Shown here: positions 380 to 34,976 of the stretch, in pieces | Position numbering within the stretch: the stretch's first letter is position 1 | Layout of the letters: every line of letters begins with the position of its first letter | NCBI GenBank assembly: GCA_050253415.1 | Contig: JBFWJC010000010.1 | Coordinates: 1 to 34,976, forward strand | Reading direction: 5' to 3' | Length of the DNA: 34,976 bases | DNA from: Pedobacter sp. | GTDB taxonomy: Bacteria; Desulfobacterota; Desulfuromonadia; Desulfuromonadales; Syntrophotaleaceae | The notes under the pieces: model-generated | Told to the model about the DNA's origin: nothing | Seen by the model: only the letters and a program-made list of their open reading frames with translations | The model's database searches: none | Translations under genes and position numbers: made by a program

Positions 380-482
380 AGTGATAAGTAACCGGCAATT
401 AGTGACTGGTGACTTCGAAAAAACCTTTTTAGCTGATTTCGCGTTCCGTAAACTAATCACAAATCACTTATTACCAATTACT
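380..482. repeat. Gene-less inverted heptamer element (RGTRAYY arm, spacer, ARTYACY arm)
   Basis: agtgata agtaacc ggcaatt agtgact ggtgact (380-414) and aatcaca aatcact tattacc aattact (455-482). Confidence 0.8.
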
Positions 483-489
483 CGCCTTA

Positions 490-2145
490 CTACATTCCCC
501 GCAACACAAAAGTCAGCAACACCCCATGAATACCCCAGAACACATACCGCAAGGTAACCCTGGAATGAACAGCCAGGATTTTAAAAGATACGAACAGCAC
601 AATTCCTTTAAAGATCACTTCATGCAGTCTATAGGTCAACTGCAACTCAGGTGACAATATCGCCAAAGACAGAGACATGGCAAACAGCAAAAAATCCATG
701 GAAGGCTGCTGCAGAACCCTTTCACCATTACGAAAAATCACCTTAAATACAACGAGTGCCCCACCCACCAGGAAAAGCACATTACGAACAGCTGCCTGGG
801 AAAAATAACTCTCACCACTGGTTAGTCCCAGTTGTTCACTCTGAAAAGCAATGACCATCCCCGACATGAAGAGCAAGGCCATCAAAAAAGGATTCCGTAA
901 ATCTCTGGCAAGAAAAAAGGACACGGAACTGATAACTAGCAAGACGATAGATATGCGGAATACCTGTTCACCGACATCCAACGGACTGCACGCGGTGTAG
1001 ATGAAAAAAACCAGCAACAACAGAGCCAAAAGAAAATCCACCTTTTGGTTCCAATGCGCCAACGTCTTGAATAAATACGAATCTTTCAAACTTCGATCAG
1101 AGTCTCGCCCCAGGATAGGTATAGACTCTTTATGCTTGAGCAAAAATCGCAACGATATGTAAAACAGGGAGGATAATAAAATATAGGAATACAGCAGAAA
1201 ATGCGCAGGTTGTTTATAACAAGTCAGAGCCACCATGCCCCAGAACAGGGTCATACCATGAATAATCAGTACCGTGAACCGGTGGTGAAAACCTAGGTCC
1301 AGAAAACGATGGTGCACATGCGTTCGATCCGGCACGAACGGGTTTCCCCGCCGCATGAGACGCTCGCTCATCACCCGCACCGTATCAATAATCGGCAATC
1401 CGAGAATAATGAAAGGAACAATAGGTTTAACCGTTGCTCCAGGTGTCTGGGTGAGAAAAATGGCGAGAAAACCAAGTAAGAAACCAACTGTGAGACTACC
1501 AGCATCCCCCATGAAAATACGTGCAGGATAAACATTGAAACGGAGAAAGCCAAACAAGCCACCCATAAGGGCGGCCGACAGAGACATAACAGCCAGGTTT
1601 CCGTCAAGGTAACCCAACAAAACAAACGCACCCAAAGCCACTGCCGCAAACCCGCCCGCCAGGCCATCCAGGCCATCCAGCAAATTCAAGGCATTGACGA
1701 CACCGACAATGGCAAACACTGTGAACACAACACCGAGCCAGGCCGGCATTTCGATCATGCCAAAGCCAAAAAGATTACCCAGATGGGTAATATACAGGCC
1801 ACCGACAAAGATCGTAACCAGACAGCCAAAGATCTCTCCCATAAATTTCTTTTTAGCAGAGAGACCGTATAAATCATCTACCATGCCGGTTGCAAAGACG
1901 ATCAGCGATCCAGCCAGGATACCTTTAACCTGACGCCCGATATCGTCAAAAACCAGCATGGCGAATAAAAACGCAATAAAAATCGCAACACCTCCGAGAC
2001 GAGGCTTGGGCCGAACATGCACCTTGCGCCCATTCGGAATATCAAACTGCTTTTTCTCAATGGCCCAGCGCCGTAGCGCAGGCACCATGATCAAAGAGAG
2101 GAACAAAGCTGTCAAAAATATGTACAGCTGATGCAACCATTCCAT
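490..2145 (-). CDS. wecA: MraY/WecA-family undecaprenyl-phosphate GlcNAc-1-phosphate transferase with C-terminal membrane extension
   Basis: Motifs RKVH..PKPRLGG, GMVDD, NALNLLDGLDGLAGG, IFMGDAGS, PDRTHVHH; many transmembrane segments. Confidence 0.85.
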   Translation of the reverse strand: MEWLHQLYIFLTALFLSLIMVPALRRWAIEKKQFDIPNGRKVHVRPKPRLGGVAIFIAFLFAMLVFDDIGRQVKGILAGSLIVFATGMVDDLYGLSAKKKFMGEIFGCLVTIFVGGLYITHLGNLFGFGMIEMPAWLGVVFTVFAIVGVVNALNLLDGLDGLAGGFAAVALGAFVLLGYLDGNLAVMSLSAALMGGLFGFLRFNVYPARIFMGDAGSLTVGFLLGFLAIFLTQTPGATVKPIVPFIILGLPIIDTVRVMSERLMRRGNPFVPDRTHVHHRFLDLGFHHRFTVLIIHGMTLFWGMVALTCYKQPAHFLLYSYILLSSLFYISLRFLLKHKESIPILGRDSDRSLKDSYLFKTLAHWNQKVDFLLALLLLVFFIYTACSPLDVGEQVFRISIVLLVISSVSFFLARDLRNPFLMALLFMSGMVIAFQSEQLGLTSGESYFSQAAVRNVLFLVGGALVVFKVIFRNGERVLQQPSMDFLLFAMSLSLAILSPELQLTYRLHEVIFKGIVLFVSFKILAVHSRVTLRYVFWGIHGVLLTFVLRGM

Positions 2146-2317
2146 CTTTTACTCCTCCAGATACTGCTCAAATTCAAAAAATGACCATAGTTACATTAGA
2201 TAAAAATCAGATTATTTCAAGCTTTTTAATATTTTGACATGTTTTTTGACACATAGAGTATCGGGCTTACCTTATGCTGGTTATCAGCGGCTATAGATTT
2301 AAGACCTAATAGCTTTT

Positions 2318-2496
2318 TATCCGCAGATTTACACAGATTTTCGCAGATAAAACCCATACCCGAATAGGACGCGGATCACATCTGATGCACGCGGATCTTC
2401 GCGGATAAAACCCCACACCCCAGGTTTTGTTTCGGTCAGATTTTCATCTGCGACAATCCGCCGTTATCTGCGGCTAACAGCCTTGGAATTGATTTT
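2318..2496. repeat. Composite 10-nt-period CGCAGAT/CGCGGAT palindromic element
   Basis: ccgcagattt acacagattt tcgcagataa (2321-2350); acgcggatca catctgatgc acgcggatct tcgcggataa (2369-2408); reverse arm atctgcgaca atccgccgtt atctgcggct (2446-2475). Confidence 0.85.
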
Positions 2497-2683: not shown

Positions 2684-4147
2684 CTAAATCCGAATAATAA
2701 CTCTCTCACCCAACGCATCCTGCAACGCAGCCGCTAATGATTGCCGCGCTTCAACCTCTCCATGCACAAGCCGTACCTCTTTCGGAATGCAGCGCATGCG
2801 ACGCACAAAGTCGACAAGGTTACGCTGATCGGCGTGGGCCGAATAGCCCGAAAGAGTATGGATACGGGCACGGATATCGTAACGTTTTCCATCGAGTACC
2901 ACATAGCCACCACCAGGCCCGTATTGCTGGATATCGCGTCCAGGGGTGCCCATGGCCTGGTACCCGACAAACAGAACATCGGTGCGCGCATCACCGAGGA
3001 GTGTTTTCAAATAGTTGACGATCCGACCACCGCTGCACATTCCGGAAGCAGCGATGACCACACAAGGCCGACCATTGCGCTTTAAATAATCGACGGCCGC
3101 CAGGTGATCCTCATGCTCATCGATAGTGGTCAACTGTTCAAAAGACAGGGGGTGACGCCCTGCCCTTACCCGGCGACAAGCCTCCTTGTCCCAGAAAGCT
3201 CCCAGTTCCCGATAAACCTCGGTAAAACGGTTGGCCAGGGGCGAATCGACGATGATTTCCAGGTCCTCCCACGGCACTCCGGACGTCACGAACCGGGTGC
3301 GGTTGCGATGAATGATATCTTCCAACTCATAGAGCAATTCCTGGGTGCGGCCGATACTGAAAGCCGGCACCAGCACCACGCCCCGATTCTCAAGCGCAGC
3401 CTCGATTATCCCCTGCAACCGGGTGCGCCGCTCACGACGTCCCCCGTGCAAACGATCCCCGTATGTACTCTCCAGCACCAGCACATCCGCTCGCCAGGGC
3501 GAACGCGGTGCCGGCAGCAAAGGCGCATAGGGAGCGCCAAGATCGCCGGAAAAGCACACCAGTGATTGGTGATTAGTGACTAGTGACTGGTCCTTTGTCT
3601 TTTGCAAAGCACCGATGCCTGAGGACAAATGACGATGTTCATCTCGTATTCTGCATTCAACATATGCCGAACCGAGTATATGACCTGCAGGTTGCAGCTT
3701 GATGGACAGTTGCGTCGCCGTTCCGGTGTCAACACCTTGCCACTTTCCGTACGGTAACGGTGATATCAGTGCCTTAAGCCTTGTCAGAAAATTGTCCAGC
3801 AACCGGGGGTCCCGCGTCACCCCGACCTTGATCGCGTCTTCCAAGACCAGCGGCAGCAGAACCGCCGACGGCTCGCTGCAATAGATCGGCCCCTCAAATC
3901 CAGCAGCCAACAGATAAGGAATTCGCCCGACATGATCAAGATGCACATGAGTAACCACCAGCGCCTTGATATGCGCAACGGAAAACTCGATCTCCGGATA
4001 TTCCTCGCTGGCCCCGCCGGTGGAACACTCCTCCCCCTGGAACATTCCGCAATCGATAAGGATACCCGCACCCTCCGCCAGACGCAGTTCGTGGCAGGAA
4101 CCGGTTACGCCGTCGGTGGCGCTATGATTTACAAGGTGAAAGGACAT
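2684..4147 (-). CDS. MBL-fold metallo-hydrolase, beta-CASP / RNA-specificity-domain family
   Basis: VTGSCH, IDCGMFQG, THVHLDHVG (HxHxDH), AGHILGS, FSGDLG, ESTYG, PAFSIGRTQE, SGMCSGGR, YSAHAD, VHGE. Confidence 0.92.
   Translation of the reverse strand: MSFHLVNHSATDGVTGSCHELRLAEGAGILIDCGMFQGEECSTGGASEEYPEIEFSVAHIKALVVTHVHLDHVGRIPYLLAAGFEGPIYCSEPSAVLLPLVLEDAIKVGVTRDPRLLDNFLTRLKALISPLPYGKWQGVDTGTATQLSIKLQPAGHILGSAYVECRIRDEHRHLSSGIGALQKTKDQSLVTNHQSLVCFSGDLGAPYAPLLPAPRSPWRADVLVLESTYGDRLHGGRRERRTRLQGIIEAALENRGVVLVPAFSIGRTQELLYELEDIIHRNRTRFVTSGVPWEDLEIIVDSPLANRFTEVYRELGAFWDKEACRRVRAGRHPLSFEQLTTIDEHEDHLAAVDYLKRNGRPCVVIAASGMCSGGRIVNYLKTLLGDARTDVLFVGYQAMGTPGRDIQQYGPGGGYVVLDGKRYDIRARIHTLSGYSAHADQRNLVDFVRRMRCIPKEVRLVHGEVEARQSLAAALQDALGERVIIRI
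3561..3588. repeat. Heptamer array inserted in frame in the beta-CASP gene
   Basis: agtgatt ggtgatt agtgact agtgact; translates as QSLVTNHQSLV just before FSGDLG. Confidence 0.85.
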
Positions 4148-4156: not shown

Positions 4157-4213
4157 AGAGATTGGTGATTTAGTGACTAGTAATTGGTAATTAGTGATTA
4201 GTAGTTGGTTAAC
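4157..4213. repeat. Left heptamer arm (RGTRAYT) of four-helix-bundle cassette 1
   Basis: agagatt ggtgatt t agtgact agtaatt ggtaatt agtgatt agtagtt ggttaac. Confidence 0.88.
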
Positions 4214-4309: not shown

Positions 4310-4672
4310 TTATTTTTGAGGCTTTCCAAGCGATCTGATAAGACCTTTGAGCATCTTGGAGATCTGAGAAATATCCTGCTGCAGGCCAAGAAGCTTTTCT
4401 TGTTTCCCAATATTAATCAACTTGGCGATCTCTATCTGGGTATCCAACTCACTGGCTGAGCCTGAAGCGATATGAAGAAATTGAATAAACTCTTTTTTCG
4501 TCTGTCTTGCTGCACCTTCCGCAATATTACTAGCTATTGAAACACCAGCGCGACGCATTTGAGAAGTCAACCCATACTTCTCCTCCGGAGGGAAAACGCG
4601 CGTTAGAGAATAAATTTCTCCGGCCAAAGTCACAGATCGTTTCCAAACATCCAATTGCTTATGGTGTTTCAT
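4310..4672 (-). CDS. Four helix bundle protein (23S rRNA intervening-sequence protein / Avd-like family)
   Basis: 120 aa: LDVWKRS, FPPEEKYGLTSQMRRAGVSIASNIAEGAAR, KEFIQFLHIASGSASELDTQ. Confidence 0.93.
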   Translation of the reverse strand: MKHHKQLDVWKRSVTLAGEIYSLTRVFPPEEKYGLTSQMRRAGVSIASNIAEGAARQTKKEFIQFLHIASGSASELDTQIEIAKLINIGKQEKLLGLQQDISQISKMLKGLIRSLGKPQK

Positions 4673-4766
4673 TGATTTTAAAATCGGGCTCCAAGGACTC
4701 GGATTAGATAACTAACAAAGTCAAGATACCCGACTCTAAACATTAAGTAAAACTATTTTTCCAGCC

Positions 4767-4787
4767 AATCACTAGTCACCAATTACT
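4767..4787. repeat. Right (inverted) heptamer arm of four-helix-bundle cassette 1
   Basis: aatcact agtcacc aattact, the reverse complement of the 4157-4213 unit type. Confidence 0.8.
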
Positions 4788-4797
4788 ATAGTTTGGG

Positions 4798-6294
4798 TTA
4801 TCGCCCGTACTTATCATCAAAACGCACAATATCATCCTCCCCGAGATACGCTCCAGACTGTACCTCAATCAATTCCAGCGGAATCAAGCCGGGATTTTCC
4901 AGGCGGTGTCTGACTCCAAGGGGGATATAGGTCGACTGGTTTTCGGAGAGCACCACGGTATCTTCTCCGTGGGTGATGCGAGCCGTACCTTTGACCACGA
5001 TCCAGTGTTCGGCACGGTGATGGTGCAGTTGCAATGACAGGCTGGCGCCGGGATTGACGGTGATGCGCTTGACCTGAAACCGTTCGCAATGGTCGATGGT
5101 TTCATAACTTCCCCACGGGCGGTTGACCCGGCGGTGCAACAGGGCCTCGCCGCGCCCTTGCGCTTTGAGTTGCTCAACGATAGCCTTCACGTCCTGCGCC
5201 CGATCGCGCGGCGCTACCAGCACCGCATCGGCGGTTTCCACCACGACATGATCTTCAAGGCCCACCGCCGCCACCATGCGTCCGGTGGAGTGCAGATAGC
5301 AATTGCGGCTGTCATGGGTCAGCACATCGCCACGCACGACATTTCCCGCCACATCGGACGGCCCCACTTCCCAAAGCGCCGACCAGGAACCGACATCGCT
5401 CCAGCCAGCATCCAGTGGAATCACCACCGCCTCGGCGGTCTTTTCCATCACCGCATAATCGATGGAATCTTTAGGGCACGCGGCAAACGCCTCGGCATCC
5501 AACCGCACAAAATCAAGATCCCGCTGCGCTTTTTCCAACGCCTCACGACAGCAGGTCAGCATTTCCGGCGCAAACTTCTCCAGCTCTTCCAGATACCGCG
5601 AAGCACGGAACATGAACATGCCGCTGTTCCAGTAGTAGTCACCCGAGGCAAGGTAAGATTCGGCGGTGGCTAGATCAGGCTTCTCCACGAATTCTGCAAT
5701 AGCGAAAGCCGTCGGATCATTAACAACCTTCCCAGGATCACCTTCTGCGGATACTTTAGTCAGGGATTTGAGGTTTTCAACCAATAACCAATCACCAATC
5801 ACTAATGACTGCTTTTGAGCCCGTATGTACCCATACCCCGTCTCAGCTTTTGTCGGCACAATCCCAAACGTAACCAGCTTACCGGCCTGGGCAAGCTCAT
5901 TCCCGTAAACCACCGCGCCACGAAAAGTCTCCGCATCAACAATCACATGATCCGCCGGCAACACCAGCAACACCGGATCATCCCCTGCCCCAAGGGCCTG
6001 CAAGGCGGCCACAGCCACCGCCGGAGCGGTATTGCGCCCCACCGGCTCCAGCATAATCGCTCCGGCCGGGCACCCCGCCTGACGCAACTGCTCCGCAACC
6101 ATAAACCGGTGGCTTTCGTTGCACACCACTAGCGGCTCGGCCAGGTTCTGCAATCCGTTAAGACGAAGCTGGGTTTCCTGCAGCAGTGTAGCGTTATTCA
6201 CCAAAGGCAATAACTGCTTAGGATAAAGTTCGCGGGATAAGGGCCAGAGACGAGTACCAGCGCCGCCGGAAAGTATTATAGGTAATAGGTTCAT
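4798..6294 (-). CDS. manC: Mannose-1-phosphate guanylyltransferase / mannose-6-phosphate isomerase
   Basis: ILSGGAGTRLWPLSRELYPKQ, EPVGRNTAPA, FVEKPD, WNSGMF, WSDVGSW; C-terminal cupin RPWG..HHHRAEHW. Confidence 0.96.
   Translation of the reverse strand: MNLLPIILSGGAGTRLWPLSRELYPKQLLPLVNNATLLQETQLRLNGLQNLAEPLVVCNESHRFMVAEQLRQAGCPAGAIMLEPVGRNTAPAVAVAALQALGAGDDPVLLVLPADHVIVDAETFRGAVVYGNELAQAGKLVTFGIVPTKAETGYGYIRAQKQSLVIGDWLLVENLKSLTKVSAEGDPGKVVNDPTAFAIAEFVEKPDLATAESYLASGDYYWNSGMFMFRASRYLEELEKFAPEMLTCCREALEKAQRDLDFVRLDAEAFAACPKDSIDYAVMEKTAEAVVIPLDAGWSDVGSWSALWEVGPSDVAGNVVRGDVLTHDSRNCYLHSTGRMVAAVGLEDHVVVETADAVLVAPRDRAQDVKAIVEQLKAQGRGEALLHRRVNRPWGSYETIDHCERFQVKRITVNPGASLSLQLHHHRAEHWIVVKGTARITHGEDTVVLSENQSTYIPLGVRHRLENPGLIPLELIEVQSGAYLGEDDIVRFDDKYGR
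5776..5810. repeat. Heptamer array inserted in frame in manC
   Basis: ttcaacc aataacc aatcacc aatcact aatgact; translates as QSLVIGDWLLVE between GYGYI and FVEKP. Confidence 0.8.
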
Positions 6295-14358: not shown

Positions 14359-15291
14359 TTATTCGCATGAGGCAAAACAAGAGCGATAGGATTGCCAGCC
14401 CTTAACAATGGCAGCAATACCATCCCAGCGTTTATGCCGCGCAAATGAAACCACTGTTTTGAGCAAAAACAAGCTGAAACCAACGATGAATATCAATCGA
14501 TTTTTCCCTTTAGCATGAAGTCTCATATTAATAAATCGATTGCGAAACAAATGAAAGGTATAAAAAGAAAGGTTACTATTGAGTGGAGATAAGGTAGCAA
14601 CGAACATTTGTTCACCTCGCGAAGAGGCCTGTACTACATGCGAAACTATTGCAGTAGGTTCGTAACGTATTTCCCAACCTAATTTTTGAGTGCGTAAACA
14701 CAACTCCACATCTTCTTCATACATAAATAAACGCTCGTCAAAACCACCAATGCTTTTCAACAACTCACGGCGAGCTAACATAGCACAGCCACTAGCAAAA
14801 GAAACTTGACGGCTCGTCATTGCCAAATTCGAATCACTGGGCCCCAAAAACCCAGGAGTTACAACTGAACCACGCAACCAACTTATTTCACCACCGCCAT
14901 ACCATAAAATCGATGGATTATTCATGAAAACAATACGCGGTGTAGCAATACCCGCCTCGGGATAAAAATCAAGCACGCGTTCCAATTGTTCTATGGTGCC
15001 TGGTTCAACTGTTGTGTCATTATTTAAAATGAAAACAAATTCACAATCTGTCTGAGAAAGGGCCCATTCGATTCCCACGTTATTGCCACAGCCGAAACCT
15101 AAATTTTCAGGAACACTAATGAAGTGGACATTAGGATATTTAAGAATAACTTTACACAACTCAGGATCATTAGGCGTGTTGTCAACGACAATAACTCTTG
15201 GGACAATTGAGGATTTATGTAATGAATAAAGACACTTTTCTGTGTCATTAGCCCCATTATAATTCACGAGAACAACAGTTGTTCGTTTCAA
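14359..15291 (-). CDS. Glycosyltransferase family 2
   Basis: VLVNYNG, IVVDN, NLGFGCGNNVG, LNNDT, SGCAML, GGFDERLFMYEEDVELC. TTG start preceded by GGGAGG. Confidence 0.9.
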   Translation of the reverse strand: MKRTTVVLVNYNGANDTEKCLYSLHKSSIVPRVIVVDNTPNDPELCKVILKYPNVHFISVPENLGFGCGNNVGIEWALSQTDCEFVFILNNDTTVEPGTIEQLERVLDFYPEAGIATPRIVFMNNPSILWYGGGEISWLRGSVVTPGFLGPSDSNLAMTSRQVSFASGCAMLARRELLKSIGGFDERLFMYEEDVELCLRTQKLGWEIRYEPTAIVSHVVQASSRGEQMFVATLSPLNSNLSFYTFHLFRNRFINMRLHAKGKNRLIFIVGFSLFLLKTVVSFARHKRWDGIAAIVKGWQSYRSCFASCE

Positions 15292-15308
15292 ACCATACCT
15301 CCCATAGT

Positions 15309-16601: not shown

Positions 16602-16689
16602 TGACGTTGTCTCTATCTTAATAAATATGTAAATAATTTATAATTTCATATCTTTTTATTACATAATCAAAAATAAACTACATGAAAAC

Positions 16690-20249: not shown

Positions 20250-20287
20250 ACCTCTAATGCGATTGTTATTCTATATCCAAGTCGAAT

Positions 20288-21811
20288 CTAAATCCCTACT
20301 TTTAAGTGACGCTTGCCTCTAATATTTTCCAAAAAAACAAAAGTACAGCCCTTTTCTTTTCCAATAATATGGTCAAAAATAATATGTACTGTGGTGGTCA
20401 TGAGGATTATCACGACGACCTCGAATATCAAAGAGAACCACCCAAGGGGTGGATACATGGATTTAAATTTAAACCCTATAGCAACACAGAAATAAGATAA
20501 GATCGCTGGGATAAAAAACACTCTTATTAGTGGCCGAAAATCGCTATGTTTGAATAGGTATTTCCATACTAATGTCAAAGTTACAATTCCCCAAAAAACC
20601 GTAATACAATATGAGTATCCAGCACCAGAAAGACCATAGCGTGGGATCAAGATGAGATTTAGTCCTAAACTTGTTATGCCAACACAAAAGGAGAGAACGG
20701 TTATATATTGTGGTTTATTTATTCCTTTAATAAATGACTCATATACAATAAATGGCCCCCTGATAATTGAACTAATAGCAACCAAAAATCCAATGTCGCT
20801 GCAACTAGCAGCGAACTTAACATTTATCCAAAGGCTAAGAAAGTCTTTCATGAAAATTGTTAAAGGAACAAATATAATACTTGACAGGACAAGCATTGCC
20901 CACGTGGCTTGTAAGAAAATCTGAGACTTCTCTTCTATACTTTCGAGAGTACAGAAGTGTGGGAAAAGAACGGTACCAGCTTGGCCTGCAAGAGAAAGTG
21001 CGCGCATGGCAAGATCTTGAGGAACAGTAAGATATCCAACACTACTGGCACCAATAAAGACACCCATAAGAAGTCGATCTGAATAACTGAAAATGACACC
21101 AAATAATTGAGACAAAAAAGAAAAGAGTCCGTAGCCAAATACTTCTCGAATGCCTTGATATGACATCGAAGGCATGAGCCGAATGGAAGGTAAGAGGCGT
21201 TTGGCAAAAAATCTATTCATCAGTACTGAAATACAATTAACTGAAACCCCCAGGATAACTAAAGAAACAATTCCCAGACCATAAAATAATAGAAGAAGGG
21301 TGAAAAAGGCCTGAATAATTGTGGTAGTGATTACGACCTTAGTGCTGATATCATACCGCTGTAAGGCTTGAGGAATTGCGCTAAATGCTCCGTTTATAAG
21401 GCTAAAAAAGAAACTCATTGATGTTAAACGTAAGAGGATAGTGGCCACTCCATGTTCGGATGGTTCAATAGAGAATAATGAAATAACCCAAGGTGCAAAT
21501 AGGAAAATTACGGTGACAGTCAATATGCCTACAAGAAGGTATACAAATAAGGTTGCCCGAATTACGCGATTAATTCCGGCAATATCTCTTATATTACTAT
21601 AGTAAGCCACATATCGAAGGGTTGCATCGCCAAGACCAAAAGACATAAGCCCCATTAAGCCGCTGACTGCCATAATCAGCATGTACAAACCATAATTAGC
21701 CGACCCGAGATGTGTAATCAGAAGAGGAGTAATAAAGAATGTAATAGCTAAAGGGATGACCCGACCAAAAATATTCCAAATAGCATTTGATGTTAGAGAG
21801 TTTTTTTGCAT
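20288..21811 (-). CDS. wzx: Polysaccharide flippase (Wzx / MOP superfamily)
   Basis: NAIWN..G, LG...YG.Y, FGL..A.LRY, DRLLMG, LILIPRYGLSGA; about 12-14 transmembrane segments. Confidence 0.85.
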   Translation of the reverse strand: MQKNSLTSNAIWNIFGRVIPLAITFFITPLLITHLGSANYGLYMLIMAVSGLMGLMSFGLGDATLRYVAYYSNIRDIAGINRVIRATLFVYLLVGILTVTVIFLFAPWVISLFSIEPSEHGVATILLRLTSMSFFFSLINGAFSAIPQALQRYDISTKVVITTTIIQAFFTLLLLFYGLGIVSLVILGVSVNCISVLMNRFFAKRLLPSIRLMPSMSYQGIREVFGYGLFSFLSQLFGVIFSYSDRLLMGVFIGASSVGYLTVPQDLAMRALSLAGQAGTVLFPHFCTLESIEEKSQIFLQATWAMLVLSSIIFVPLTIFMKDFLSLWINVKFAASCSDIGFLVAISSIIRGPFIVYESFIKGINKPQYITVLSFCVGITSLGLNLILIPRYGLSGAGYSYCITVFWGIVTLTLVWKYLFKHSDFRPLIRVFFIPAILSYFCVAIGFKFKSMYPPLGWFSLIFEVVVIILMTTTVHIIFDHIIGKEKGCTFVFLENIRGKRHLKVGI

Positions 21812-22009
21812 TCTAAAAGATGCTCCATTAGTGGGTATTTAAAATTTATTTCATACGTCATAAAAGAAAAATTAACGAATGGATTAACCCTCGACAGAGA
21901 GACAACCAGAGGGGGACAGATACCAACTGAGCCTTAGAGTATCTTTTAACCACGGCCGTTAACGTATAAGCTTGGAGACAGCAGCCCCTGTCTTTGCATC
22001 CAGCAAAGA

Positions 22010-25118: not shown

Positions 25119-25177
25119 GGTCTATATTCCCTGTCCAATCCAGATAAATGAAATGAAAAATATACTTTTAACAATTC

Positions 25178-25262
25178 TTAGCCACAGACTTACACAGATT
25201 AAATCTAGAACAAGGTCTATGTAGTTGAATCAGGTTTTATCCGCCGTTATATCCGTAGGTAA
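25178..25262. repeat. Degenerate 10-nt-period palindromic element
   Basis: ttagccacagac ttacacagatt ... ggttttatccgccgtt atatccgtaggtaa; same unit type as 2318-2496. Confidence 0.6.
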
Positions 25263-25297
25263 GGAGTCAGGGTTCCTAGATGCCAATTTTTTTGCGA

Positions 25298-27491: not shown

Positions 27492-27558
27492 GATCAAGTC
27501 CTTTCAGTAAGGGCTGAACACCTACACCGTAAACACAAATCAAATTCTGTTAAAGCAT

Positions 27559-27670
27559 TAGCCGCAGATGCACGCAGATTTTCGCAGATCAGACCCAACC
27601 TATAAGCGAATATGTTAGTTCAGACCTTGCTTGGTTTCCATCTGCGGCAATCCGCTCTTATCAGCGGCTA
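27559..27670. repeat. Palindromic 10-nt-period element, downstream flank of the GxxExxY gene
   Basis: tagccgcagatgcacgcagattttcgcagat ... atctgcggcaatccgctcttatcagcggcta. Confidence 0.9.
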
Positions 27671-27736
27671 TTAAGCTTTTGTGTTTTTCTTGCCCCATGT
27701 TCACGTAGATTTTTGCAAATCAGTAGCCAATAAATT

Positions 27737-28120
27737 CTAAAGTCCGTTCACCACACGCTTAATATGGACTTTATCTGCCCCATAATTAATCAAAAGGCCT
27801 AGTTTTTTCCTTGTGGCTTTCAGATAATTTAGGCACTGAGCCAAATGAATATTATCAAGATTTTTGACTGTCTTAAGTTCTACGATGATCTCTCCTTCGA
27901 TAAAGAGGTCAGCGATATAGTCACCGACAACAACGTCATTATAGTAAACCTTAATCGGTACCTGTCCCTCAACTTTTAGACCGGCTTTTTTTAATTCATG
28001 AGACAAGGCATTTTCATAAACTTTTTCGAGAAAACCGTATCCAAGTTTTTTGGCAACAGTGTATGCACCCCCGATGATCTGTTCAGTTACACTTTTAAAG
28101 TACGCCTCGTCACGTACCAT
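27737..28120 (-). CDS. GxxExxY protein (PD-(D/E)XK nuclease-like)
   Basis: 127 aa with GFLEKVY, YIADLFIEGEIIVELK (D...ExK), AQCLNYLKAT, GLLINY. Confidence 0.93.
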   Translation of the reverse strand: MVRDEAYFKSVTEQIIGGAYTVAKKLGYGFLEKVYENALSHELKKAGLKVEGQVPIKVYYNDVVVGDYIADLFIEGEIIVELKTVKNLDNIHLAQCLNYLKATRKKLGLLINYGADKVHIKRVVNGL

Positions 28121-28189
28121 GCAAGCCTCAAGAGTCAGGTTTAAAAATGTCTAGTCCTATCTGTGGTTAACATCTTTTGAGTTCTATTC

Positions 28190-28304
28190 TTAACCGCTGA
28201 TTCACGCAGAATTTCGCAGATCAAACTCTAACCCTGAAGACCATTCTATCTGTTCAGCCTTGCTTAGGTTTTATCTGCGCCAATCCGCTTTTATCTGCGG
28301 TTAA
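28190..28304. repeat. Palindromic 10-nt-period element, upstream flank of the GxxExxY gene
   Basis: ttaaccgctgattcacgcagaatttcgcagat ... atctgcgccaatccgcttttatctgcggttaa; direct-repeat homologue of 27559-27670 including the spacer. Confidence 0.9.
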
Positions 28305-28694
28305 TGGCTTTGGAATTTGATCTTAAACACTGACGTAAAAGGATTCTCCCAGGATATCACCCTAAACCAAAGCTCGGTTAAAATCAGATGTTTATCCGGC
28401 CGATTCTGCGTGATTCGCGTTCTATTGCTTTTTGCCATTTGAATAAAAGGTCTTGAATGAGACGAGATCGAATGTTTTTAAAAGTAGAAATTTCCCTCAA
28501 TAAATTTAGACAAAATTAATCGAACAAAAGAATAGTGCAGACAATACTCTTGAAAATACAAAACTACAATTAAAAATTTTTCAATTAGGAGCCAACAGAC
28601 TAGCAGGCATGGGCGGGAATTTAAGGGAGAGTTTGCCTCTCGTATGCTGGCGATAGGCCCTGTTGCAGCGGCTTCGCCTGCCATTGAAAAGTGC

Positions 28695-28859
28695 TCAGAT
28701 CCTGATAGAAATGGAATGGAACACACGCCAGAAACTCGTATCACAGTGCGAACAGCAATAGTAGGTGGAATGGGGTAAAAAACGCATCCACCAAATGCGT
28801 CTGATCCTTTCAAAATTTCTCGTTCCACACACTGGACAAACCAAAAACCGTGAGGACAT
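28695..28859 (-). CDS. Small zinc-ribbon-like protein (54 aa), not in the ORF track
   Basis: Hand translation MSSRFLVCPVCGTRNFERIRRIWWMRFLPHSTYYCCSHCDTSFWRVFHSISIRI*: two CxxC pairs, AGGGAG Shine-Dalgarno upstream, promoter-like elements further upstream. Confidence 0.7.
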   Translation of the reverse strand: MSSRFLVCPVCGTRNFERIRRIWWMRFLPHSTYYCCSHCDTSFWRVFHSISIRI

Positions 28860-28908
28860 ATGAACTATTCTCCCTAAAATAATATCAAGATATATGGTTC
28901 GGTATTAG

Positions 28909-28982
28909 ATGATATATTGAAAAAAGTCAGTGTCAACTTCCCGACAGTTCAGGATATTAAATTAGAGTTAATTCAGTGTCAA
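28909..28982 (-). promoter_or_regulatory. Two tandem sigma70-like promoters
   Basis: TTGACA(28977-28982)-N17-TAATAT(28954-28959) and TTGACA(28931-28936)-N16-TATCAT(28909-28914). Confidence 0.55.
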
Positions 28983-29200
28983 TCCTTTTTTTTCTATCTA
29001 ATTAAGTTTTACTAACTAATTTTAATGGTGGTATTTTGTCGGATTTATGGAGAGCAAGAGATTAGAACTTGGAAGGAATTTACCGCAAACAAAAATAAAG
29101 GAGGTTGGACGCTGCTGACTAAAAAACTAAGCCCCCGATAGCAACAGCTTCAATTGTAGGGTTAGGGCTAAGGCCAGAATCGGTGTATGGCGTCACGGGT

Positions 29201-29358
29201 TTTATCCGCTTTTATCCGACCTTATCTGCGTTCAAAACAAGCCGTTGACCGAAATCGAAACCTCTTGGCGAACGCAGATAAAGGCGGATGCTCGCAGATG
29301 ACTTCAAAAAGAATACTACTTGTATAAACTCTTATGCACGCGAATCTTCGCGGATTAA
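29201..29358. repeat. 10-nt-period palindromic element with arms in opposite order, plus a partial copy
   Basis: tttatccgct tttatccgac cttatctgcgttc ... gaacgcagata aaggcggatg ctcgcagatg; then atgcacgcgaatcttcgcggattaa. Confidence 0.85.
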
Positions 29359-29388: not shown

Positions 29389-31275
29389 CTACCCGAAAAG
29401 CTCCCGTACTATTTTTTCCGCCAGTTCTTCCGGGCTGGCTTCGGCACCATTGACGGTGATTTCGGGGCTTTCCGGTGCTTCGTAGGCGGAGTCTATACCG
29501 GTGAAGTTTTTAAGTTGACCTGAGCGGGCTTTTTTATACAACCCTTTGGGATCGCGTTGCTCGCAAACTTCCAGGGGAGTGTTCACAAATATCTCGACAA
29601 ACTCCCCTTGTTCTACCAGATCCCTTGCCAGTTGCCGTTCGCTTTTGAAGGGCGAGATAAACGATACAAGCACTACAAGACCTGCATCTACGAATAGTTT
29701 GGCGGTCTCCGCAACGCGGCGAATGTTTTCAACGCGATCGGCATCGGTGAATCCAAGGTCGCGGTTAAGACCGTGGCGCACGTTGTCGCCATCGAGGATG
29801 TAGCTGTGTTTGCCCATGGAGTGGAGTTTTTTCTCCACAAGGTTGGCGATGGTCGATTTGCCGGATCCGGAAAGTCCGGTAAACCACAGCACGCGAGGCT
29901 TTTGCCCTTTTTGCTCGGCACGGGACTTTTTATCGATATCGATAGACTGCCAGTGGATGTTGCTGGCACGCCGCAAGGGAAAGTCGATCATGCCGGCGCC
30001 TACGGTGGCGTTGGTAAACCGATCGATGAGGATAAAACTGCCGGTGGCGCGATTTTCCTGGTAGGGATCGAAGGAAAGGGCTTTGCTGAGACTGAAATTA
30101 CAAACCCCTACCTCGTTGAGTTGCAGGGTTTTGCCTGGCTCATGTTGCAAGGTATTGACGTTGACCTTGTATTTCAGTTCGCTGATCTGGGCAGGCAGTG
30201 TGGTGGAACCAATTTTGATCAGATAACTGCGACCAGGCAGCAAAGGCACTTCGTGCATCCAGACAAGATGTGCCCTGAACTGATCCGCATGGGTCGGCCT
30301 GGCCAGGGGATCCGCAAGCAGATCGCCTCGACTGATATCGATTTCATCGGAGAGGGTCAAAGTCACAGCCTGCCCTCCGACAGCTTGCGGCAGATCGCCA
30401 TCCATCGTCACGATGCGCGCAACGGTGCTTTTTTGCCCGGACGACGGCACCACCACTTCATCACCGGGACGCAGGGTACCGGAAGCTATAGTGCCTGCAA
30501 AGCCGCGAAAATCGAGATTAGGACGATTCACCATTTGCACTGCCATGCGAAAAGGCTTGTTCGCTACGTCATCGTCTATTTGAACCGTTTCCAGATACTG
30601 CAGCAGCGTCGGACCCTGATACCAGGAGGTATGACCGTTGGCATCGATGACATTGTCACCGCGCAGGGCTGAAATGGGTATGGCCGTGATCTGCCCGAAG
30701 CCAAGGTCTTTGGCGAATGCTTCGTATTCTTCGCGGATGGCATGAAAGCGGCTGGCGGAATAATCGACCAAATCCATTTTGTTAATGGCGAGTACCACAT
30801 TGCGAATCCCGACCAGCGACACAAGATAGCTATGACGCCTGGTCTGGGTCAAAATACCTTTACGGGCATCAATGAGAATCACGGCCACATCGGCGGTGGA
30901 AGCCCCGGTGACCATGTTGCGTGTGTACTGCTCGTGACCGGGGGTATCGGCAACGATAAATTTACGCTTGTCGGTGGAAAAGAAACGATAGGCCACATCG
31001 ATGGTAATGCCCTGCTCCCGCTCAGCCTGCAGCCCGTCGAGTAAAAGTGCATAGTCGACATCTTCACCTTGGGTGCCTACCCTTTTGCTGTCGGCCTCCA
31101 AAGCGGCGAGCTGATCTTCAAAGATCAGCTTTGAATCCCACAACAAACGGCCGATGAGGGTACTCTTTCCGTCATCAACGCTACCGCAGGTTATAAAGCG
31201 CAGCATCGATTTTTCTTCTTGTTGTTTCAGATATTTGTGGATGTCGGATGCTATTAACTCAGATTGGTGGGACAT
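29389..31275 (-). CDS. cysNC: Sulfate adenylyltransferase subunit 1 fused to adenylylsulfate kinase (CysN/CysC, NodQ-like)
   Basis: [42 protein letters not shown]-terminal [26 protein letters not shown]. Start at ATG 31275 with GGAG RBS. Confidence 0.96.
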
Positions 31276-31296
31276 ATTGAAATCTCCGATTTCAAT

Positions 31297-31331
31297 AGCT
31301 TCAAGCCTCAAGCTTCAAGCCATAAGTTTAA
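31297..31331. repeat. Left heptamer arm (AGCTTCA type) of four-helix-bundle cassette 2
   Basis: agcttca agcctca agcttca agccata agtttaa. Confidence 0.82.
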
Positions 31332-31342
31332 ATTCCATAGAT

Positions 31343-31687
31343 TCAAGGACGATCTATGGATTTCATTAATCCTGTCAACATGGAGGATATTTCGCGGGTT
31401 TCACTCAACCAATCTTGTGCAACCGATTTCATTATGTAATCAATATCCATTCCGATATAAATCTGTGTTCGTAATTCTGCACAAGAAGCTCTCGCTATAT
31501 TGAGAAAATGAAGTTTTTCCTTATCGGAAACCCTTTCCATACCTTCAGCAATATTACTCGGCACCGAAAGACCGGAGCGAGTTATCTGATCCTTGAAACC
31601 AAAATCTCTCAAGTCTGCTAGTTGGCGATAAATATCTGCAGATAATTCACGTGACCTCTTCCAAACCAAAAGCTTTTCAAAGTCCAT
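31343..31687 (-). CDS. Four helix bundle protein (23S rRNA intervening-sequence protein / Avd-like family), paralogue 2
   Basis: 114 aa: FEKLLVWKRS, DFGFKDQITRSGLSVPSNIAEG.ER, FLNIARASCAELRTQ. Confidence 0.93.
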   Translation of the reverse strand: MDFEKLLVWKRSRELSADIYRQLADLRDFGFKDQITRSGLSVPSNIAEGMERVSDKEKLHFLNIARASCAELRTQIYIGMDIDYIMKSVAQDWLSETREISSMLTGLMKSIDRP

Positions 31688-31715
31688 TTTCTTTCCTTAA
31701 AAGAAGCCACAATCT

Positions 31716-31757
31716 TTTAGCTTACAGCTTGTAGCTGATGGCTTGAAGCTTGGAACT
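31716..31757. repeat. Right (inverted) heptamer arm (TGAAGCT type) of four-helix-bundle cassette 2
   Basis: tttagct tacagct tgtagct gatggct tgaagct tggaact. Confidence 0.82.
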
Positions 31758-31783
31758 AACAGGAAGGTTATTTCGGATCCTGA

Positions 31784-32689
31784 TCAGAAATAACCTTCCT
31801 GTTTCTTCTTCTCCATCGACCCGGCCTGATCGTGGTCGATGAGGCGGCCCTGGCGTTCGGAGGTGCGGGTCAGGAGCATCTCCTGGATGATTTCCGGCAG
31901 GGTGTCGGCGGTCGATTCAACGGCGGCGGTCAGGGGGTAGCAGCCCAGGGTACGGAAGCGTACGGATTTCATCTCTACCTTTTCCCCCGGCTTGAGTTCC
32001 AGGCGATCATCATCGACCAGGATCAACATGCCGTCGCGCTTTACCACGGGGCGCTCCTTGGAGTAGTACAGGGGCACGATGGGGATTTGCTCAAGGTAGA
32101 TATATTGCCAAATATCGAGTTCGGTCCAGTTGGACAGCGGAAAGGCACGGATACTCTCCCCCTGGCTGACTTTAGCATTATAAAGGTTCCAGAGCTCGGG
32201 GCGTTGGCTCTTGGGGTCCCAGCGGTGAGTGGCGGTACGAAAGGAAAAAATCCGTTCTTTGGCACGGGACTTTTCCTCGTCGCGTCGCGCGCCGCCAAAG
32301 GCGGCATCGAACTTGTATTTATCCAGGGCCTGTTTGAGGCCCTCTGTCTTCATGACGTCGGTGTACAATGCCGACCCATGGGTAAAGGGGGAGATCCCAC
32401 GATTGACGCCATCTTCGTTGGTATGGATAAGCAGATCAAAGCCGTATTCCGCAGCAAGGTTGTCGCGAAATTCGATCATTTCCCGGAACTTCCAGGTAGT
32501 ATCGACATGCATCAATGGAAAAGGCGGACGAGCCGGATAAAAGGCCTTACGCGCCAGGTGCAGCATTACGGAGGAATCTTTACCGATAGAATACAGCATC
32601 ACCGGATTGTCGAATTCTGCGGCGACTTCGCGAATAATATGGATACTTTCCGCCTCGAGTTGGCGAAGATGGGTCATGTTCACTGTCAT
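31784..32689 (-). CDS. cysD: Sulfate adenylyltransferase subunit 2
   Basis: [58 protein letters not shown]. Confidence 0.97.
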
Positions 32690-32745: not shown

Positions 32746-32861
32746 ATGGTACGCGGATCACATCTGATGCGCGCGGATTTACACGGATTAAACCCAGAAA
32801 ACTATGACTTTGGTTTAAATCATATTGTTATCCGGCTATTACCGTGGCATCCGCGTACGAT
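32746..32861. repeat. 10-nt-period palindromic element between the permease and cysD
   Basis: atggtacgcggatcacatctgatgcgcgcggatttacacggattaa ... atccgcgtacgat; left arm nearly identical to 2369-2408. Confidence 0.85.
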
Positions 32862-32917
32862 GGTCTTTGTATCATTTTCTTTTTATCGCAAGTTATCTTA
32901 TACGTTTGATACAGCTG

Positions 32918-34696
32918 CTAGAACCCCCACACCCTCGGTATAACAATCAGAGCCACTGTCATAAAAATGAGATTCAACGGAATCCCCAGTTTAAGGAAAT
33001 CGGTGAACTTGTATCCACCTGGGCCGTAAACCATCAGGTTGGTCTGATAGCCTATGGGAGTAGCAAAACTTGCTGAGGCGGCGACGGCAATGGCTACGGC
33101 AAAGGGCATGGGATTAAGGCCCTGTTTTTCGGCAACAGCCATGGCGATGGGGAAAATCAGGGCGGCTGCGGCATTGTTGGTAATAAGTTCTGTCAGCAGC
33201 GATGTCACAAGGTAAACAGCTGCGAGCAAACCTAAAGGCCCCCAATTCTGCACAGTCTCTATGACATAGCCGGCCAAATATCCTGCCGCGCCGGTTTTTT
33301 CCAGGGCACGACTGATCCCCAAAGCGGCGGCAATGACGATCAATACATTAAGCTCAATGGAACGTCGGGCTTCAACGACAGTAACACATTTGGTTACGAT
33401 GAGAATAATGGCAGATAAGATGGCGGCCTTCAGAATGTCCAACGTTCCCGAAGCCGACAGCACTACCATACCTGCTAAAACCGCAATGCTGATAATCGAT
33501 TTCCTGCGGAACACTTTTGGGATATCGACCACCTTGGATACCATATAAAATTCGCGGGAATAGTTCCATCGCTTGACAAAGTCATCCCCGGCCAATAACA
33601 ACAGGGTATCTCCCGGCCGCAACACAATCTTGCCGAGGTTATCTGTCAGGCATTCTCCGTGGCGATGAACCGCCAATATGGCGGCATCATACCTGGCGCG
33701 AAAATTCCCTTCTTTTATGGTTCTGCCGAGCATCGGAGAAGATCGTGACACTACCGCTTCCAGGATACGTCCTTTACCGCTGTTTCGCAGTGCAAGACAG
33801 AATTCTTTTTCGTGGCCGGGGACCAGGCCGGGAATGTTATGCAGGCGCAGAATGGAATCGACACGCCCGGTGAAAAACAGTTGATCTCTGGCCTGCAAAA
33901 CGTCGGTAGGACGCACGGGAGCCACAAGATTCCCATTGCGTAGAATCTGGGCAAGATATAATTGACCAAGATTTCGTAAACCGGCCTCTTCAACGGTTTT
34001 ACCTGCCAGGGAACTTCCTGCCTGGACTTTCATTTCCAGAAAATACTCGCGCCCTGCCCCATTTTGGATATTTTCGGCCAGATCTTTACGCTCAGGAAGC
34101 AGACGGAACCCGAACAGCAGCATAAAGGCAATTCCGGCTACGGCACAGGGCAACCCCACCCAGGCCAGCTCGAACATGCCGAAACTCAGCTGTGTTGCTT
34201 GATACAGCATACCGTTGACGACCAGGTTGGTGGATGTGCCGATGAGAGTACAAATCCCACCGAAAATGGAGGCATAGGAAAGGGGAATCAGGAATTTACT
34301 GGGAGAGAAACGGTGTTTCAGTGCCCAGTCGCGAATGGTTGGGGTAAACATCGCCACGATAGGCGTGTTGTTGAGAAAAGCCGACATACCGAAAACGGGT
34401 GTCATCATTCGGACCAGGGACCGGCGTCCGCCGCCGCTTTGCCCCATCACCCTATCGGCAAAAAAAGAAAGAATTCCGGAGGATTGCGCCGCATAGGCAA
34501 CGATAAAAAGAAGCCCTACTGTCAACATTCCGGGATTCGAGAAGCCTGCAAAGGCTTCACTTGGAGACAATACATCACCCAACAAAAGCAATCCCAGTGC
34601 CGAAAAAACGATGATATCCGGTGCCAATATCTCAAAGGCCAGAGTTATCAGCATCATACAAACAATGACCAATGTGAATATTGCAGCGCCTGTCAT
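32918..34696 (-). CDS. SLC13/DASS-family permease with two TrkA-C (RCK_C) domains, probably an anion (sulfate?) transporter
   Basis: GFSN, SAFLNNTPIVA, GGICTLIGTSTNL, central RCK_C-like repeats, TELITNNAAA, FATPIGYQTNLMV. Confidence 0.88.
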   Translation of the reverse strand: MTGAAIFTLVIVCMMLITLAFEILAPDIIVFSALGLLLLGDVLSPSEAFAGFSNPGMLTVGLLFIVAYAAQSSGILSFFADRVMGQSGGGRRSLVRMMTPVFGMSAFLNNTPIVAMFTPTIRDWALKHRFSPSKFLIPLSYASIFGGICTLIGTSTNLVVNGMLYQATQLSFGMFELAWVGLPCAVAGIAFMLLFGFRLLPERKDLAENIQNGAGREYFLEMKVQAGSSLAGKTVEEAGLRNLGQLYLAQILRNGNLVAPVRPTDVLQARDQLFFTGRVDSILRLHNIPGLVPGHEKEFCLALRNSGKGRILEAVVSRSSPMLGRTIKEGNFRARYDAAILAVHRHGECLTDNLGKIVLRPGDTLLLLAGDDFVKRWNYSREFYMVSKVVDIPKVFRRKSIISIAVLAGMVVLSASGTLDILKAAILSAIILIVTKCVTVVEARRSIELNVLIVIAAALGISRALEKTGAAGYLAGYVIETVQNWGPLGLLAAVYLVTSLLTELITNNAAAALIFPIAMAVAEKQGLNPMPFAVAIAVAASASFATPIGYQTNLMVYGPGGYKFTDFLKLGIPLNLIFMTVALIVIPRVWGF

Positions 34697-34734
34697 GCGA
34701 AATACTTTTGGTTGTTAAGGGTCATATAAAAGGC

Positions 34735-34976
34735 TGTAACTAGTGATTCGTGATTGGCTTTCACAGCAAACCCGCTCAATTCATGGACTCGCAAGAGCCT
34801 ACAAAAAGAGAATAAGGCTTAAAAGTTTTAGGTTCTCCACCGGTCACCAGTCACCAGTCACCAGTCACCAGTCACCAGTCACCAGTCACCAGTCACCAGT
34901 CACCAGTCACCAGTCACCAGTCACCAGTCACCAGTCACCAGTCACCAGTCACCAGTCACCAGTCACCAGTCACCAG
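34735..34976. repeat. Heptamer element: short RGTGATT arm plus perfect (AGTCACC)x18 array truncated by the window end
   Basis: tgtaact agtgatt cgtgatt (34735-34755); ggtcacc (34842-34848) then 18 exact AGTCACC from 34849. Confidence 0.95.

Follow-up and report, generated by a model that had tools for sequence, protein, structure and literature searches.

In the 34,976-base stretch analysed here (the window, which is the entire contig C10 of a 4.10-Mb, 18-contig Desulfuromonadales genome, G000, and makes up 0.85% of it), three small genes fill gaps between co-directional genes, and each belongs to a cassette of about 0.45-0.65 kb made up of an arm, a short leader, one open reading frame (ORF) and a complementary arm. 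Every arm is a short tandem array, and the core of its repeated unit is specific to the protein family encoded between the arms: two of the genes encode four-helix-bundle proteins of Pfam family PF05635 (IVP1 and IVP2), and the third a GxxExxY protein of family PF13366. In the genome, each of two repeat families, one of heptamers and one of decamers, is represented by a single copy with a gene and by several to many without. On balance, and with modest confidence, we favour the reading that the protein and its iterated recognition word form one heritable cassette, relocated now and then, which would shed gene-less hairpins and whose arms would make it tolerable in transcripts.

A preliminary description had placed the three small genes at operon junctions, each within an inverted periodic bracket of its own. 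The placement is confirmed: IVP1 lies between manC and a beta-CASP hydrolase gene, IVP2 between cysD and cysN, and the GxxExxY gene follows a promoter-like region and precedes an epimerase gene. The brackets stand for IVP1 and IVP2; the GxxExxY gene has decayed arms of its own and is flanked by two whole gene-less hairpins. The parts of the three cassettes are as follows, with a strand given for genes and leader.

4310-4672, minus strand: IVP1 four-helix-bundle protein (PF05635, E 7.8e-39; NCBIfam NF008911, 140.3 bits against a cut-off of 137)
4161-4209: IVP1 arm on the beta-CASP side, of GTGAYT-type heptamers (Tandem Repeats Finder, TRF, periods 7 and 21), pairing with 4765-4788 in the minimum-free-energy (MFE) fold
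4673-4764, minus strand: IVP1 leader, about 90 nt between arm and start, homologous in congeneric genomes G004 and G070, where it inverts together with the ORF
4765-4788: complementary heptamer arm of IVP1, adjoining the manC stop (inverted-repeat search and fold)
31343-31687, minus strand: IVP2 four-helix-bundle protein (PF05635, E 4.3e-33; NCBIfam NF008912)
31297-31332: IVP2 arm of AGCTTCA-type heptamers, abutting the cysN start (TRF period 7 at 31297-31321) and forming the closing stem of the fold
31715-31752: complementary heptamer arm of IVP2 (inverted-repeat search and fold)
31753-31808: hairpin at the cysD end, consisting of the final ~22 nt of that gene plus an inverted copy of them past its stop (inverted repeat of 27 nt, 89%)
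27737-28120, minus strand: GxxExxY protein (PF13366, E 1.3e-39, 135.6 bits against a cut-off of 22; TIGR04256, 142.7 against 35)
27694-27720: decayed 3' arm of the GxxExxY cassette, in which three units follow at 10-nt spacing and one is near consensus
28139-28171: decayed 5' arm of the GxxExxY cassette; it has AAC-CACAGAT, the terminal motif of the family, which is common to 26 of 54 relatives

IVP1 is enclosed by an inverted repeat of 22 nt (4178-4199 with 4767-4788, 91% complementary) and IVP2 by one of 36 nt (31297-31332 with 31715-31750, 78%) with a core of 18 nt at 94%. The GxxExxY arms keep one good core each, the remaining units being decayed, and the element that they delimit (27694-28171) measures 478 bp, the median of 54 relatives being 482 bp. 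When the minus-strand RNA is folded, the arms pair around the ORF in both IVP cassettes (IVP2: z -7.3, 0/100 shuffles as good; IVP1: z -3.2, 0/20). The GxxExxY block also folds better than its shuffles (z -5.2, 0/20 as good), its MFE structure pairing outer arm with outer arm and inner with inner; local hairpins are an obvious alternative to this whole-block fold. No sigma-70-like site was found inside the IVP1 and IVP2 cassettes. The sole ORF of each cassette encodes about 115-127 amino acids, and none of the cassettes contains a transposase: Pfam and NCBIfam return only PF05635/TIGR02436 and PF13366/TIGR04256.

The coupling between repeat and protein extends well beyond this genome. PF05635 was found in 117 and PF13366 in 123 of 201 genomes of the order, and the 30 best matches to each were taken as the order sample, which includes kin, making its fractions descriptive. 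The bracket score was the best local alignment of the upstream flank against the reverse complement of the downstream flank, and the controls had identical geometry shifted by 0.6-1.3 kb (n = 431 for PF05635 and 335 for PF13366), with their 95th percentile as threshold. RNA duplex energy over 215-nt flanks had been uninformative, the controls being equally negative, and local alignment was used in its place. Brackets exceed the threshold at 24 of the 30 PF05635 loci, the IVP locus of the window included, and at 25 of 28 PF13366 loci (two further loci have no flanks). The expectation that such repeats are commoner around these genes than elsewhere is thereby upheld, here as in the two further samples below, the three being independent and all having brackets far above the displaced controls.

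The arrays differ between the two families in period and in core. Runs of 7 nt occur in 32 of 58 IVP flanks, 6 of 110 controls and 0 of 58 GxxExxY flanks. Strict self-match periodicity misses most GxxExxY arrays, whose spacer letters vary, and core-spacing counts were therefore used for these: at least three CRCNRA cores at 7-11-nt spacing are present at 25 of 30 GxxExxY loci compared with 2 of 30 IVP loci, while GTGA at 7-nt spacing numbers 57 in IVP flanks and 0 in GxxExxY flanks. IVP arrays are accordingly described by a 7-nt period with a GTRA core, and GxxExxY arrays by 8-10 nt with a CRCNRA core.

We sampled the subfamily of the window's GxxExxY protein at 80 loci (52-65% identity, more than 10 phyla), 71 of which have both flanks. 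The hosts, as their records name them, include Acidobacteriota, Planctomycetota, Chloroflexota, Verrucomicrobiota, Cyanobacteriota and a Treponema, as well as several Proteobacteria, NC10, an actinobacterium, a Syntrophomonas and two Methanosarcinales. Across this range 60 of the 71 loci exceed the bracket control, and 52 of the 71 have at least three cores, as against 6 of 260 control segments. The cores are spaced by exactly 10 nt in 237 of 259 spacings of 5-14 nt. At unit positions not fixed by the search pattern (320 units, 65 loci) the letters are A (66%), G (95%), T (93%) and then R-A-A, which is the CGCAGAT word of the window. The elements have sharp ends: the first core is preceded by AAC in 26 of 54, and GTT follows the last one in 22 of 54. 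They are not accompanied by target-site duplications: none is seen in 47 of these 54 elements, and the remainder (2 nt in 5, 3 nt in 2) is at about the level of chance.

Metagenomic loci of the IVP1 subfamily give a comparable picture: 50 of 65 exceed the bracket control, and 7-nt runs are present in 77 of 130 flanks compared with 6 of 91 controls. The polarity of the unit is fixed as well, GTRA standing on the inward-reading strand in 60 of 78 heptamer runs (chance ~0.055 per unit). That the repeat type tracks the protein, as had been proposed, is also seen within each family. On the IVP tree the unit class needs 10 changes, the shuffled mean being 19.5, and on the GxxExxY tree of the order the spacing class together with the last core letter (T, G or A) follows clades with 9 changes compared with 12.8 after shuffling; in both cases 0 of 200 shuffles were as low. 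The clades bring together different junction types.

The genome contains two matches to PF05635 and one to PF13366, all three inside the window, and IVP1 and IVP2 fall into separate NCBIfam subfamilies (NF008911 and NF008912). The closest relatives of IVP1 in the PDB, 2gsc (E 8.8e-28) and 2rld, were both deposited with five chains, and the four-helix-bundle protein is probably oligomeric. For the GxxExxY protein a PDB sequence search returned no match. Its predicted structure (predicted local distance difference test, pLDDT, 95.7) retrieves in Foldseek the Cas4 protein SSO0001 (E 4e-5, TMq 0.54-0.56), 3ijm, which is an uncharacterised restriction-endonuclease-like protein, lambda-exonuclease-like proteins, MGME1 and Hjc. 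Residues G29, E32, Y35, D71, E81 and K83 are invariant in all 17 of 17 aligned sequences. Profile matches, the conserved triad D71/E81/K83 and the modelled alpha/beta fold of the restriction-endonuclease type together place the GxxExxY protein in the PD-(D/E)XK superfamily, as a putative nuclease. PADLOC gave two marginal partial matches to it (E 5.6e-4 and 2.9e-3) and none to IVP1 or IVP2.

Gene-less copies of the two repeat families, which the preliminary description had reported at other junctions, are corroborated by unit maps, by folding and by copies elsewhere in the genome. Those in the window are listed here.

27560-27672: intact gene-less decamer (CGCAGAT) hairpin downstream of the GxxExxY gene (fold z -5.2)
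28195-28305: intact gene-less decamer hairpin upstream of the GxxExxY gene (fold z -5.8)
29197-29300: decamer inverted pair in the opposite, 'inside-out' arrangement, lying between the promoter-like region and cysN stop (20 nt, 90%; z -3.9)
2277-2475: composite gene-less decamer element between the GT4 and beta-CASP genes (unit map and TRF period 10)
25180-25255: weak gene-less decamer hairpin between the glmS-like and epimerase genes (fold of 25170-25265 z -1.2, not better than shuffles)
32750-32860: gene-less decamer hairpin between the transporter gene and cysD (z -4.05), 81-82% identical to two copies on contig C7
378-487: gene-less heptamer hairpin at the locus edge, with tRNA-Leu on one side and the GT4 gene on the other (z -3.9)
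34740-34976: gene-less heptamer hairpin whose distal arm has grown to about 20 units (TRF 19.9 copies) and which ends the contig

Five of the six gene-less copies that were folded have z of -3.9 or lower, the exception being 25170-25265. The two hairpins flanking the GxxExxY gene are 81% identical, loop included (27560-27672 with 28188-28312), and TRF reports period 10 at 2324-2348 and 29200-29218. Decamer copies on different contigs have loops that are 81-82% identical, and two neighbouring copies are 99% identical. Matches to two decamer units number 29 in the genome, 9 of them in the window contig; the others cluster at about five loci beside inositol monophosphatase, DUF4197, thioesterase/Crp and isochorismatase genes. 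A strict census of decamers undercounts the window's own hairpins, whose middle units are degenerate, and was not used for enrichment. Heptamer GTRAY arrays number 44, with 7 in the window contig, and form 10 forward-plus-reverse pairs, of which only the IVP1 pair holds a gene. The core of the earlier proposal, a cognate protein and repeat with non-autonomous copies, thus survives; an exclusive association does not, the repeats of this genome also lying away from the small genes.

Single arms of heptamer hairpins have grown to 10-22 units at C1:1233064, C2:98567, C2:302352, C2:493282 and C7:80290, giving strongly asymmetric hairpins, and such expansions suggest slippage-prone arrays. Arrays are also found inside coding sequence. 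An in-frame heptamer array of the IVP1-arm type (5780-5806) is located in manC at residues ~160-190, in a loop that separates the GYGYI motif from FVEKPD; the sequence of this loop is different and repeat-derived in each of five congeneric manC copies, a situation reminiscent of the palindromic elements translated within Rickettsia genes. The beta-CASP hydrolase ORF contains a second in-frame heptamer array at 3561-3588 (QSLV...QSLV in the protein).

Filled and empty sites, the comparison that had been suggested, can be set side by side at the cysD-cysN junction, which among congeners is empty, filled by a gene-less hairpin or filled by IVP2. Genome G057 has no spacer there, G070, G105 and G004 have gene-less inverted heptamer hairpins with different units, and G120 has an IVP2 ortholog (82% amino-acid identity; ratio of nonsynonymous to synonymous substitution rates, dN/dS, 0.05). 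At the G120 site there is an additional inner pair of heptamers of a different kind, together with the remnant of an AGCT-type array. The hairpin at the cysD end (31753-31808 type) is found only at the filled sites of G000 and G120, with one compensatory change between them, and is absent from the four empty or gene-less sites.

IVP1 orthologs adjoin manC in G004 and G070 (78-82% amino-acid identity, dN/dS 0.06-0.08, dS >1.4), and in both genomes leader and ORF are inverted in place between retained arms. The GxxExxY gene has a dN/dS of 0.16 relative to its G120 ortholog. All three genes are thus under strong purifying selection (dN/dS 0.05-0.16, dS 0.4-2.4). The single GxxExxY gene of G004 lies elsewhere: 17 of the 31 decamer-pattern matches of that genome are within 2 kb of the gene and 9 more in the homologous glycan locus. 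Beside that gene, at least six tandem decamer hairpins follow one another at ~174-208 nt (G004:C1:1729072-1730232), and six further decamer copies with a 279-nt period lie in the glycan locus (G004:C1:2080662-2082073). Metagenome contigs from four DNA runs (matches of at least 90%) join 27505 to 29258 (X3, X6), 27589 to 29265 (X6) and 31212 to 31794 (X4), with shorter sides of only 29-38 nt. Such joints would delete either the GxxExxY block or the IVP2 cassette; they are weak hints, which may stem from repeats or other organisms. The IVP2 region is uncovered by the metagenome contigs of X3 and X6.

Within the order, 24 of 59 loci (27 with three ambiguous ones) are flanked by nucleotide-sugar or polysaccharide genes, and manC-manB, rmlB-rmlD, wzm-wzt, gmd-fcl and hldE are recurrent junctions; other settings are nuoF-G, sensor-regulator pairs, yicC and sfsA. 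The small gene is co-oriented in 31 of the 34 loci that lie between two co-directional frames. Among the matches listed, PF05635 and PF13366 matches lie at most 25 kb apart on one contig in at least 16 genomes. Defence-type neighbours also occur, namely DUF6079 (L010, L011, L018), BrxC (L054), a methylase/DUF4391 (L043) and SNF2 (L025); L018 and L025 group with IVP2 on the tree and have no detectable arms.

Every long ORF of the window is on the minus strand. By Pfam these comprise a sulfate uptake and activation set (transporter, cysD-like PAPS_reduct, cysN/C) and a long polysaccharide set with epimerases, a glmS-like gene, UDP-GlcNAc 2-epimerase, flippase, pyruvyl transferase, a Wzy-like protein, four glycosyltransferases, rmlBDAC, manC, the beta-CASP hydrolase and a GT4 initiating transferase. 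A tRNA-Leu(CAG) at 203-289 is the sole Rfam match. The G+C content falls to 32-37% at ~15000-22000, in the core of Wzy, flippase and glycosyltransferase genes, compared with 50-58% in the flanking nucleotide-sugar genes, as is typical of an exchanged serotype-like module. Two strong sigma-70-like sites at 28909-28982 (minus strand; 11/12 and 10/12 matches) probably mark the start of a glycan operon separate from the cys genes. Downstream of them lies an ORF of 116 amino acids (28478-28828), for which Pfam, NCBIfam and PADLOC give no family and two congeners have no ortholog. At both ends the contig terminates in heptamer arrays of 18-20 units (1-127 and 34838-34976). The start of contig C8 (G000:C8:4-116), which carries polysaccharide-export genes, has the same unit on the same strand as the right end of the window; the polysaccharide locus therefore probably continues on C8, the assembly having broken in the repeat.

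The mechanism that we have in mind for the relocating cassette begins with the encoded protein, a GxxExxY nuclease or an IVP, which would bind the iterated cores of its own arms. Cassettes, and gene-less hairpins with the same arms, would then spread or be exchanged at the DNA level, with transfer through hairpins or recombination that leaves no target-site duplication. Survival would be mainly in the spacers of co-transcribed genes, the ORF being read from the host operon transcript. In that transcript the arms may pair into a long stem, like that of the 23S rRNA intervening sequences excised by RNase III, and in this way render the insert tolerable. Some copies would be old, fixed at one junction and maintained by selection.

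Several observations weigh against this proposal. No bracket above control was found at 6 of 30, 3 of 28, 11 of 71 and 15 of 65 loci in the respective samples. The units of the IVP2 subfamily are heterogeneous, the AAGCT-type unit being shared by only 2 of 29 relatives (L259, L266), and the orthologous IVP2 genes of G000 and G120 are surrounded by different inner heptamers, which implies that an exchange of arms need not involve the gene. IVP1 has kept its place next to manC over a dS above 1.4, unlike an actively hopping element, and no near-identical gene-bearing copies occupy two sites of the genome, in which each gene is single-copy. To our knowledge no catalytic role in DNA movement has been described for four-helix-bundle proteins. 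As to the statistics, kin are non-independent, several loci with the same unit are orthologous positions, and controls taken within +-1.2 kb contain neighbouring arrays.

The main rival is that the cassettes are RNA modules that serve the host, their arms forming sites for RNase III or another RNase in polycistronic mRNA; by cutting there, the RNase would make the glycan and sulfate-activation neighbours independent of one another in stability and dosage, and the small proteins would be auxiliary RNA-binding factors. RNase III does cut PF05635 cassettes in 23S rRNA (Warrier 2016, PMC4990558). The long closing stems predicted for all three blocks, the prevailing co-orientation with the operon (31 of 34 loci), the compensatory change in the hairpin spanning the cysD stop and the long retention of IVP1 beside manC under selection would all fit an RNA-level role. 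Such a role would leave unexplained why sequence core and polarity are conserved across phyla, beyond mere pairing, and why copies lie beside unrelated genes and within ORFs. The cysD-cysN junction is moreover empty or occupied by unrelated hairpins in congeners, and in G004 and G070 the IVP1 interior is antisense to the operon with selection still acting; empty junctions and in-place inversion together argue against a required regulatory role, and we regard this explanation as unlikely. Domestication is next in rank and somewhat less credible still: once-mobile cassettes whose proteins now serve the host, for example in recombination or variation of glycan modules at the arrays, or in defence. 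Low dN/dS with saturated dS, the recurrent nucleotide-sugar and polysaccharide junctions, the proximity of the two families on one contig, neighbours such as BREX, DUF6079 or methylase genes and, as a weak hint, the array-to-array joints in related populations are all in keeping with it. Occupancy is patchy among close relatives, however, PADLOC has no match of note, many loci lie in unrelated operons such as nuoF-G, two-component pairs, yicC and sfsA, and the glycan-locus enrichment is a raw count that includes kinship and the high turnover of glycan loci.

Two explanations remain. In one, the arrays are sites of a global DNA-binding regulator of the IHF or HU type, and the small genes are merely nearby. 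Paired opposite-strand tandem-repeat sites have been proposed for just such a role in Geobacter metallireducens (Aklujkar et al. 2009, PMC2700814); the reverse complement of one unit given there, TCTCCGTS[Y], fits the CRCNRA core, and 10-nt spacing suits one face of B-DNA. Set against this, across phyla the arrays accompany two small-protein families that are unrelated to each other, and the units vary between junctions and, at one junction, between congeners, which a single regulator cannot account for; we consider this highly improbable. In the other, generic intergenic simple repeats, akin to short tandemly repeated repetitive (STRR) heptamers, happen to lie beside three small genes. The abundance of heptamer arrays in the genome (44), their expansion to 14-22 units and their presence at both contig ends give this some footing, but it is contradicted by all control comparisons and by the family-specific cores, and we give it next to no credence.

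A wider and more tentative reading, which taken as a whole we hold possible and would not yet adopt, is that the ORF-bearing intervening sequences of 23S rRNA may be one visible member of a large class of minimal selfish cassettes that has so far gone undescribed. This class would span bacteria and some archaea and use at least two unrelated proteins, among them a PD-(D/E)XK nuclease and a four-helix bundle similar to Avd, each recognising the core of its own arms, CRCAGAT at helical phasing or nGTRAnn heptamers. Movement would take a hairpin- or cruciform-dependent route without target duplication and would seed gene-less hairpins in the manner of miniature inverted-repeat transposable elements (MITEs). 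The cassettes would be tolerated in operons and in rRNA through an RNase-cut stem formed by the arms, and would settle preferentially at conserved junctions within exchangeable surface-glycan loci. PF05635 and GxxExxY each form a very large family for which we know of no function, and a specific, conserved nucleic-acid word is a directly testable ligand for both. A tie between each family and such a word would explain how the ORF-bearing rRNA intervening sequences arose, recast the Geobacter "global regulator sites" and account for hairpin repeats that break assemblies and sit in operons and even in coding loops. Cutting of the stems in mRNA, should it occur, would also affect how surface-polysaccharide and sulfate-activation operons are expressed.

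Among systems already described, gene-less arrays of this layout have been in print since 2009 as putative regulator sites of G. metallireducens. Described by Aklujkar et al. 2009 (PMC2700814) and putatively assigned to a global regulator or IHF, these sites are paired tandem repeats on opposite strands; a site is made up either of three TCTCCGTS[Y] repeats, of five MTYCTGA heptamers or of four octamers. They come from the same order-level group and share with the arrays described here 3-5 tandem units of 7-9 nt at variable distance, in inter- and intragenic positions; reverse-complementing the class 2 unit gives a unit of the CRCNRA type, and class 3 is a heptamer. This likeness is one of published description and not of element identity on that genome. 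The sites differ in being gene-less, and the text passages covered, with 12 of 19 supplementary files, contain no link to GxxExxY or four-helix-bundle proteins. Our literature search returned no description of such gene-bearing cassettes in operons.

Other candidates were set aside. A diversity-generating retroelement was rejected, there being no reverse transcriptase family and no repeat pair of the corresponding type among the 31 window ORFs; the four-helix-bundle fold family is shared with Avd of these retroelements, with weak profile matches of the IVP below cut-off (NF033474, 19.8 bits against 80, E 7.5e-4; PF22296, 24.5 against 40, E 4e-5). Integron cassettes were rejected, as no integrase is present and arms lie on both sides of the gene, and CRISPR-like arrays were rejected for their lack of spacers. 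The ends of Mu and Tn7 hold several transposase-binding sites, and TnsA of Tn7 is a PD-(D/E)XK nuclease. Sharp inverted termini, three phased direct repeats per end and miniature non-autonomous copies recall such transposons and MITEs. A DDE transposon would nevertheless bring target-site duplication and a transposase or strand-transfer enzyme, and neither is seen here, the GxxExxY element encoding only a putative nuclease of about 125 amino acids.

The closest parallels are found elsewhere. Repetitive extragenic palindromic (REP) sequences and their REPIN hairpins are associated with a REP-associated tyrosine transposase (RAYT), encoded by a single-copy gene with inverted flanking repeats; gene-less hairpins are dispersed in many copies, without target-site duplication. 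The likeness to REP/RAYT elements that had been suggested holds as an analogy of layout, a gene flanked by inverted repeats that are also dispersed as gene-less hairpins, and fails for the enzyme: the window encodes PD-(D/E)XK nuclease-like and four-helix-bundle proteins and no HUH/Y1 transposase. The arms, too, consist of 3-5 iterated units in place of one REP palindrome, and copies number tens, not hundreds. The 23S rRNA intervening sequences are cleaved by RNase III, are sporadically distributed and are suspected of horizontal transfer, and that of helix 45 in Coxiella burnetii is an insert of ~0.43 kb with terminal inverted repeats, a stem of ~28 bp and one PF05635 ORF (Warrier 2016, PMC4990558). 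As in these ORF-bearing sequences of Coxiella and Leptospira (S23p, that is PF05635), the inverted ends of our cassettes can pair into a long stem around the insert, and two of the three carry PF05635, the third carrying PF13366. The cassettes differ in lying between protein-coding genes of mRNA operons and not in helix 25 or 45, in having arms that are tandem arrays with a conserved core, in the abundance of gene-less copies, and in a second, unrelated family, GxxExxY, sharing the design. Judged by these analogies, the best reading is that they resemble cassettes of the intervening-sequence and REPIN kind, in which the protein would recognise its own arms and gene-less derivatives would arise much as MITEs do.

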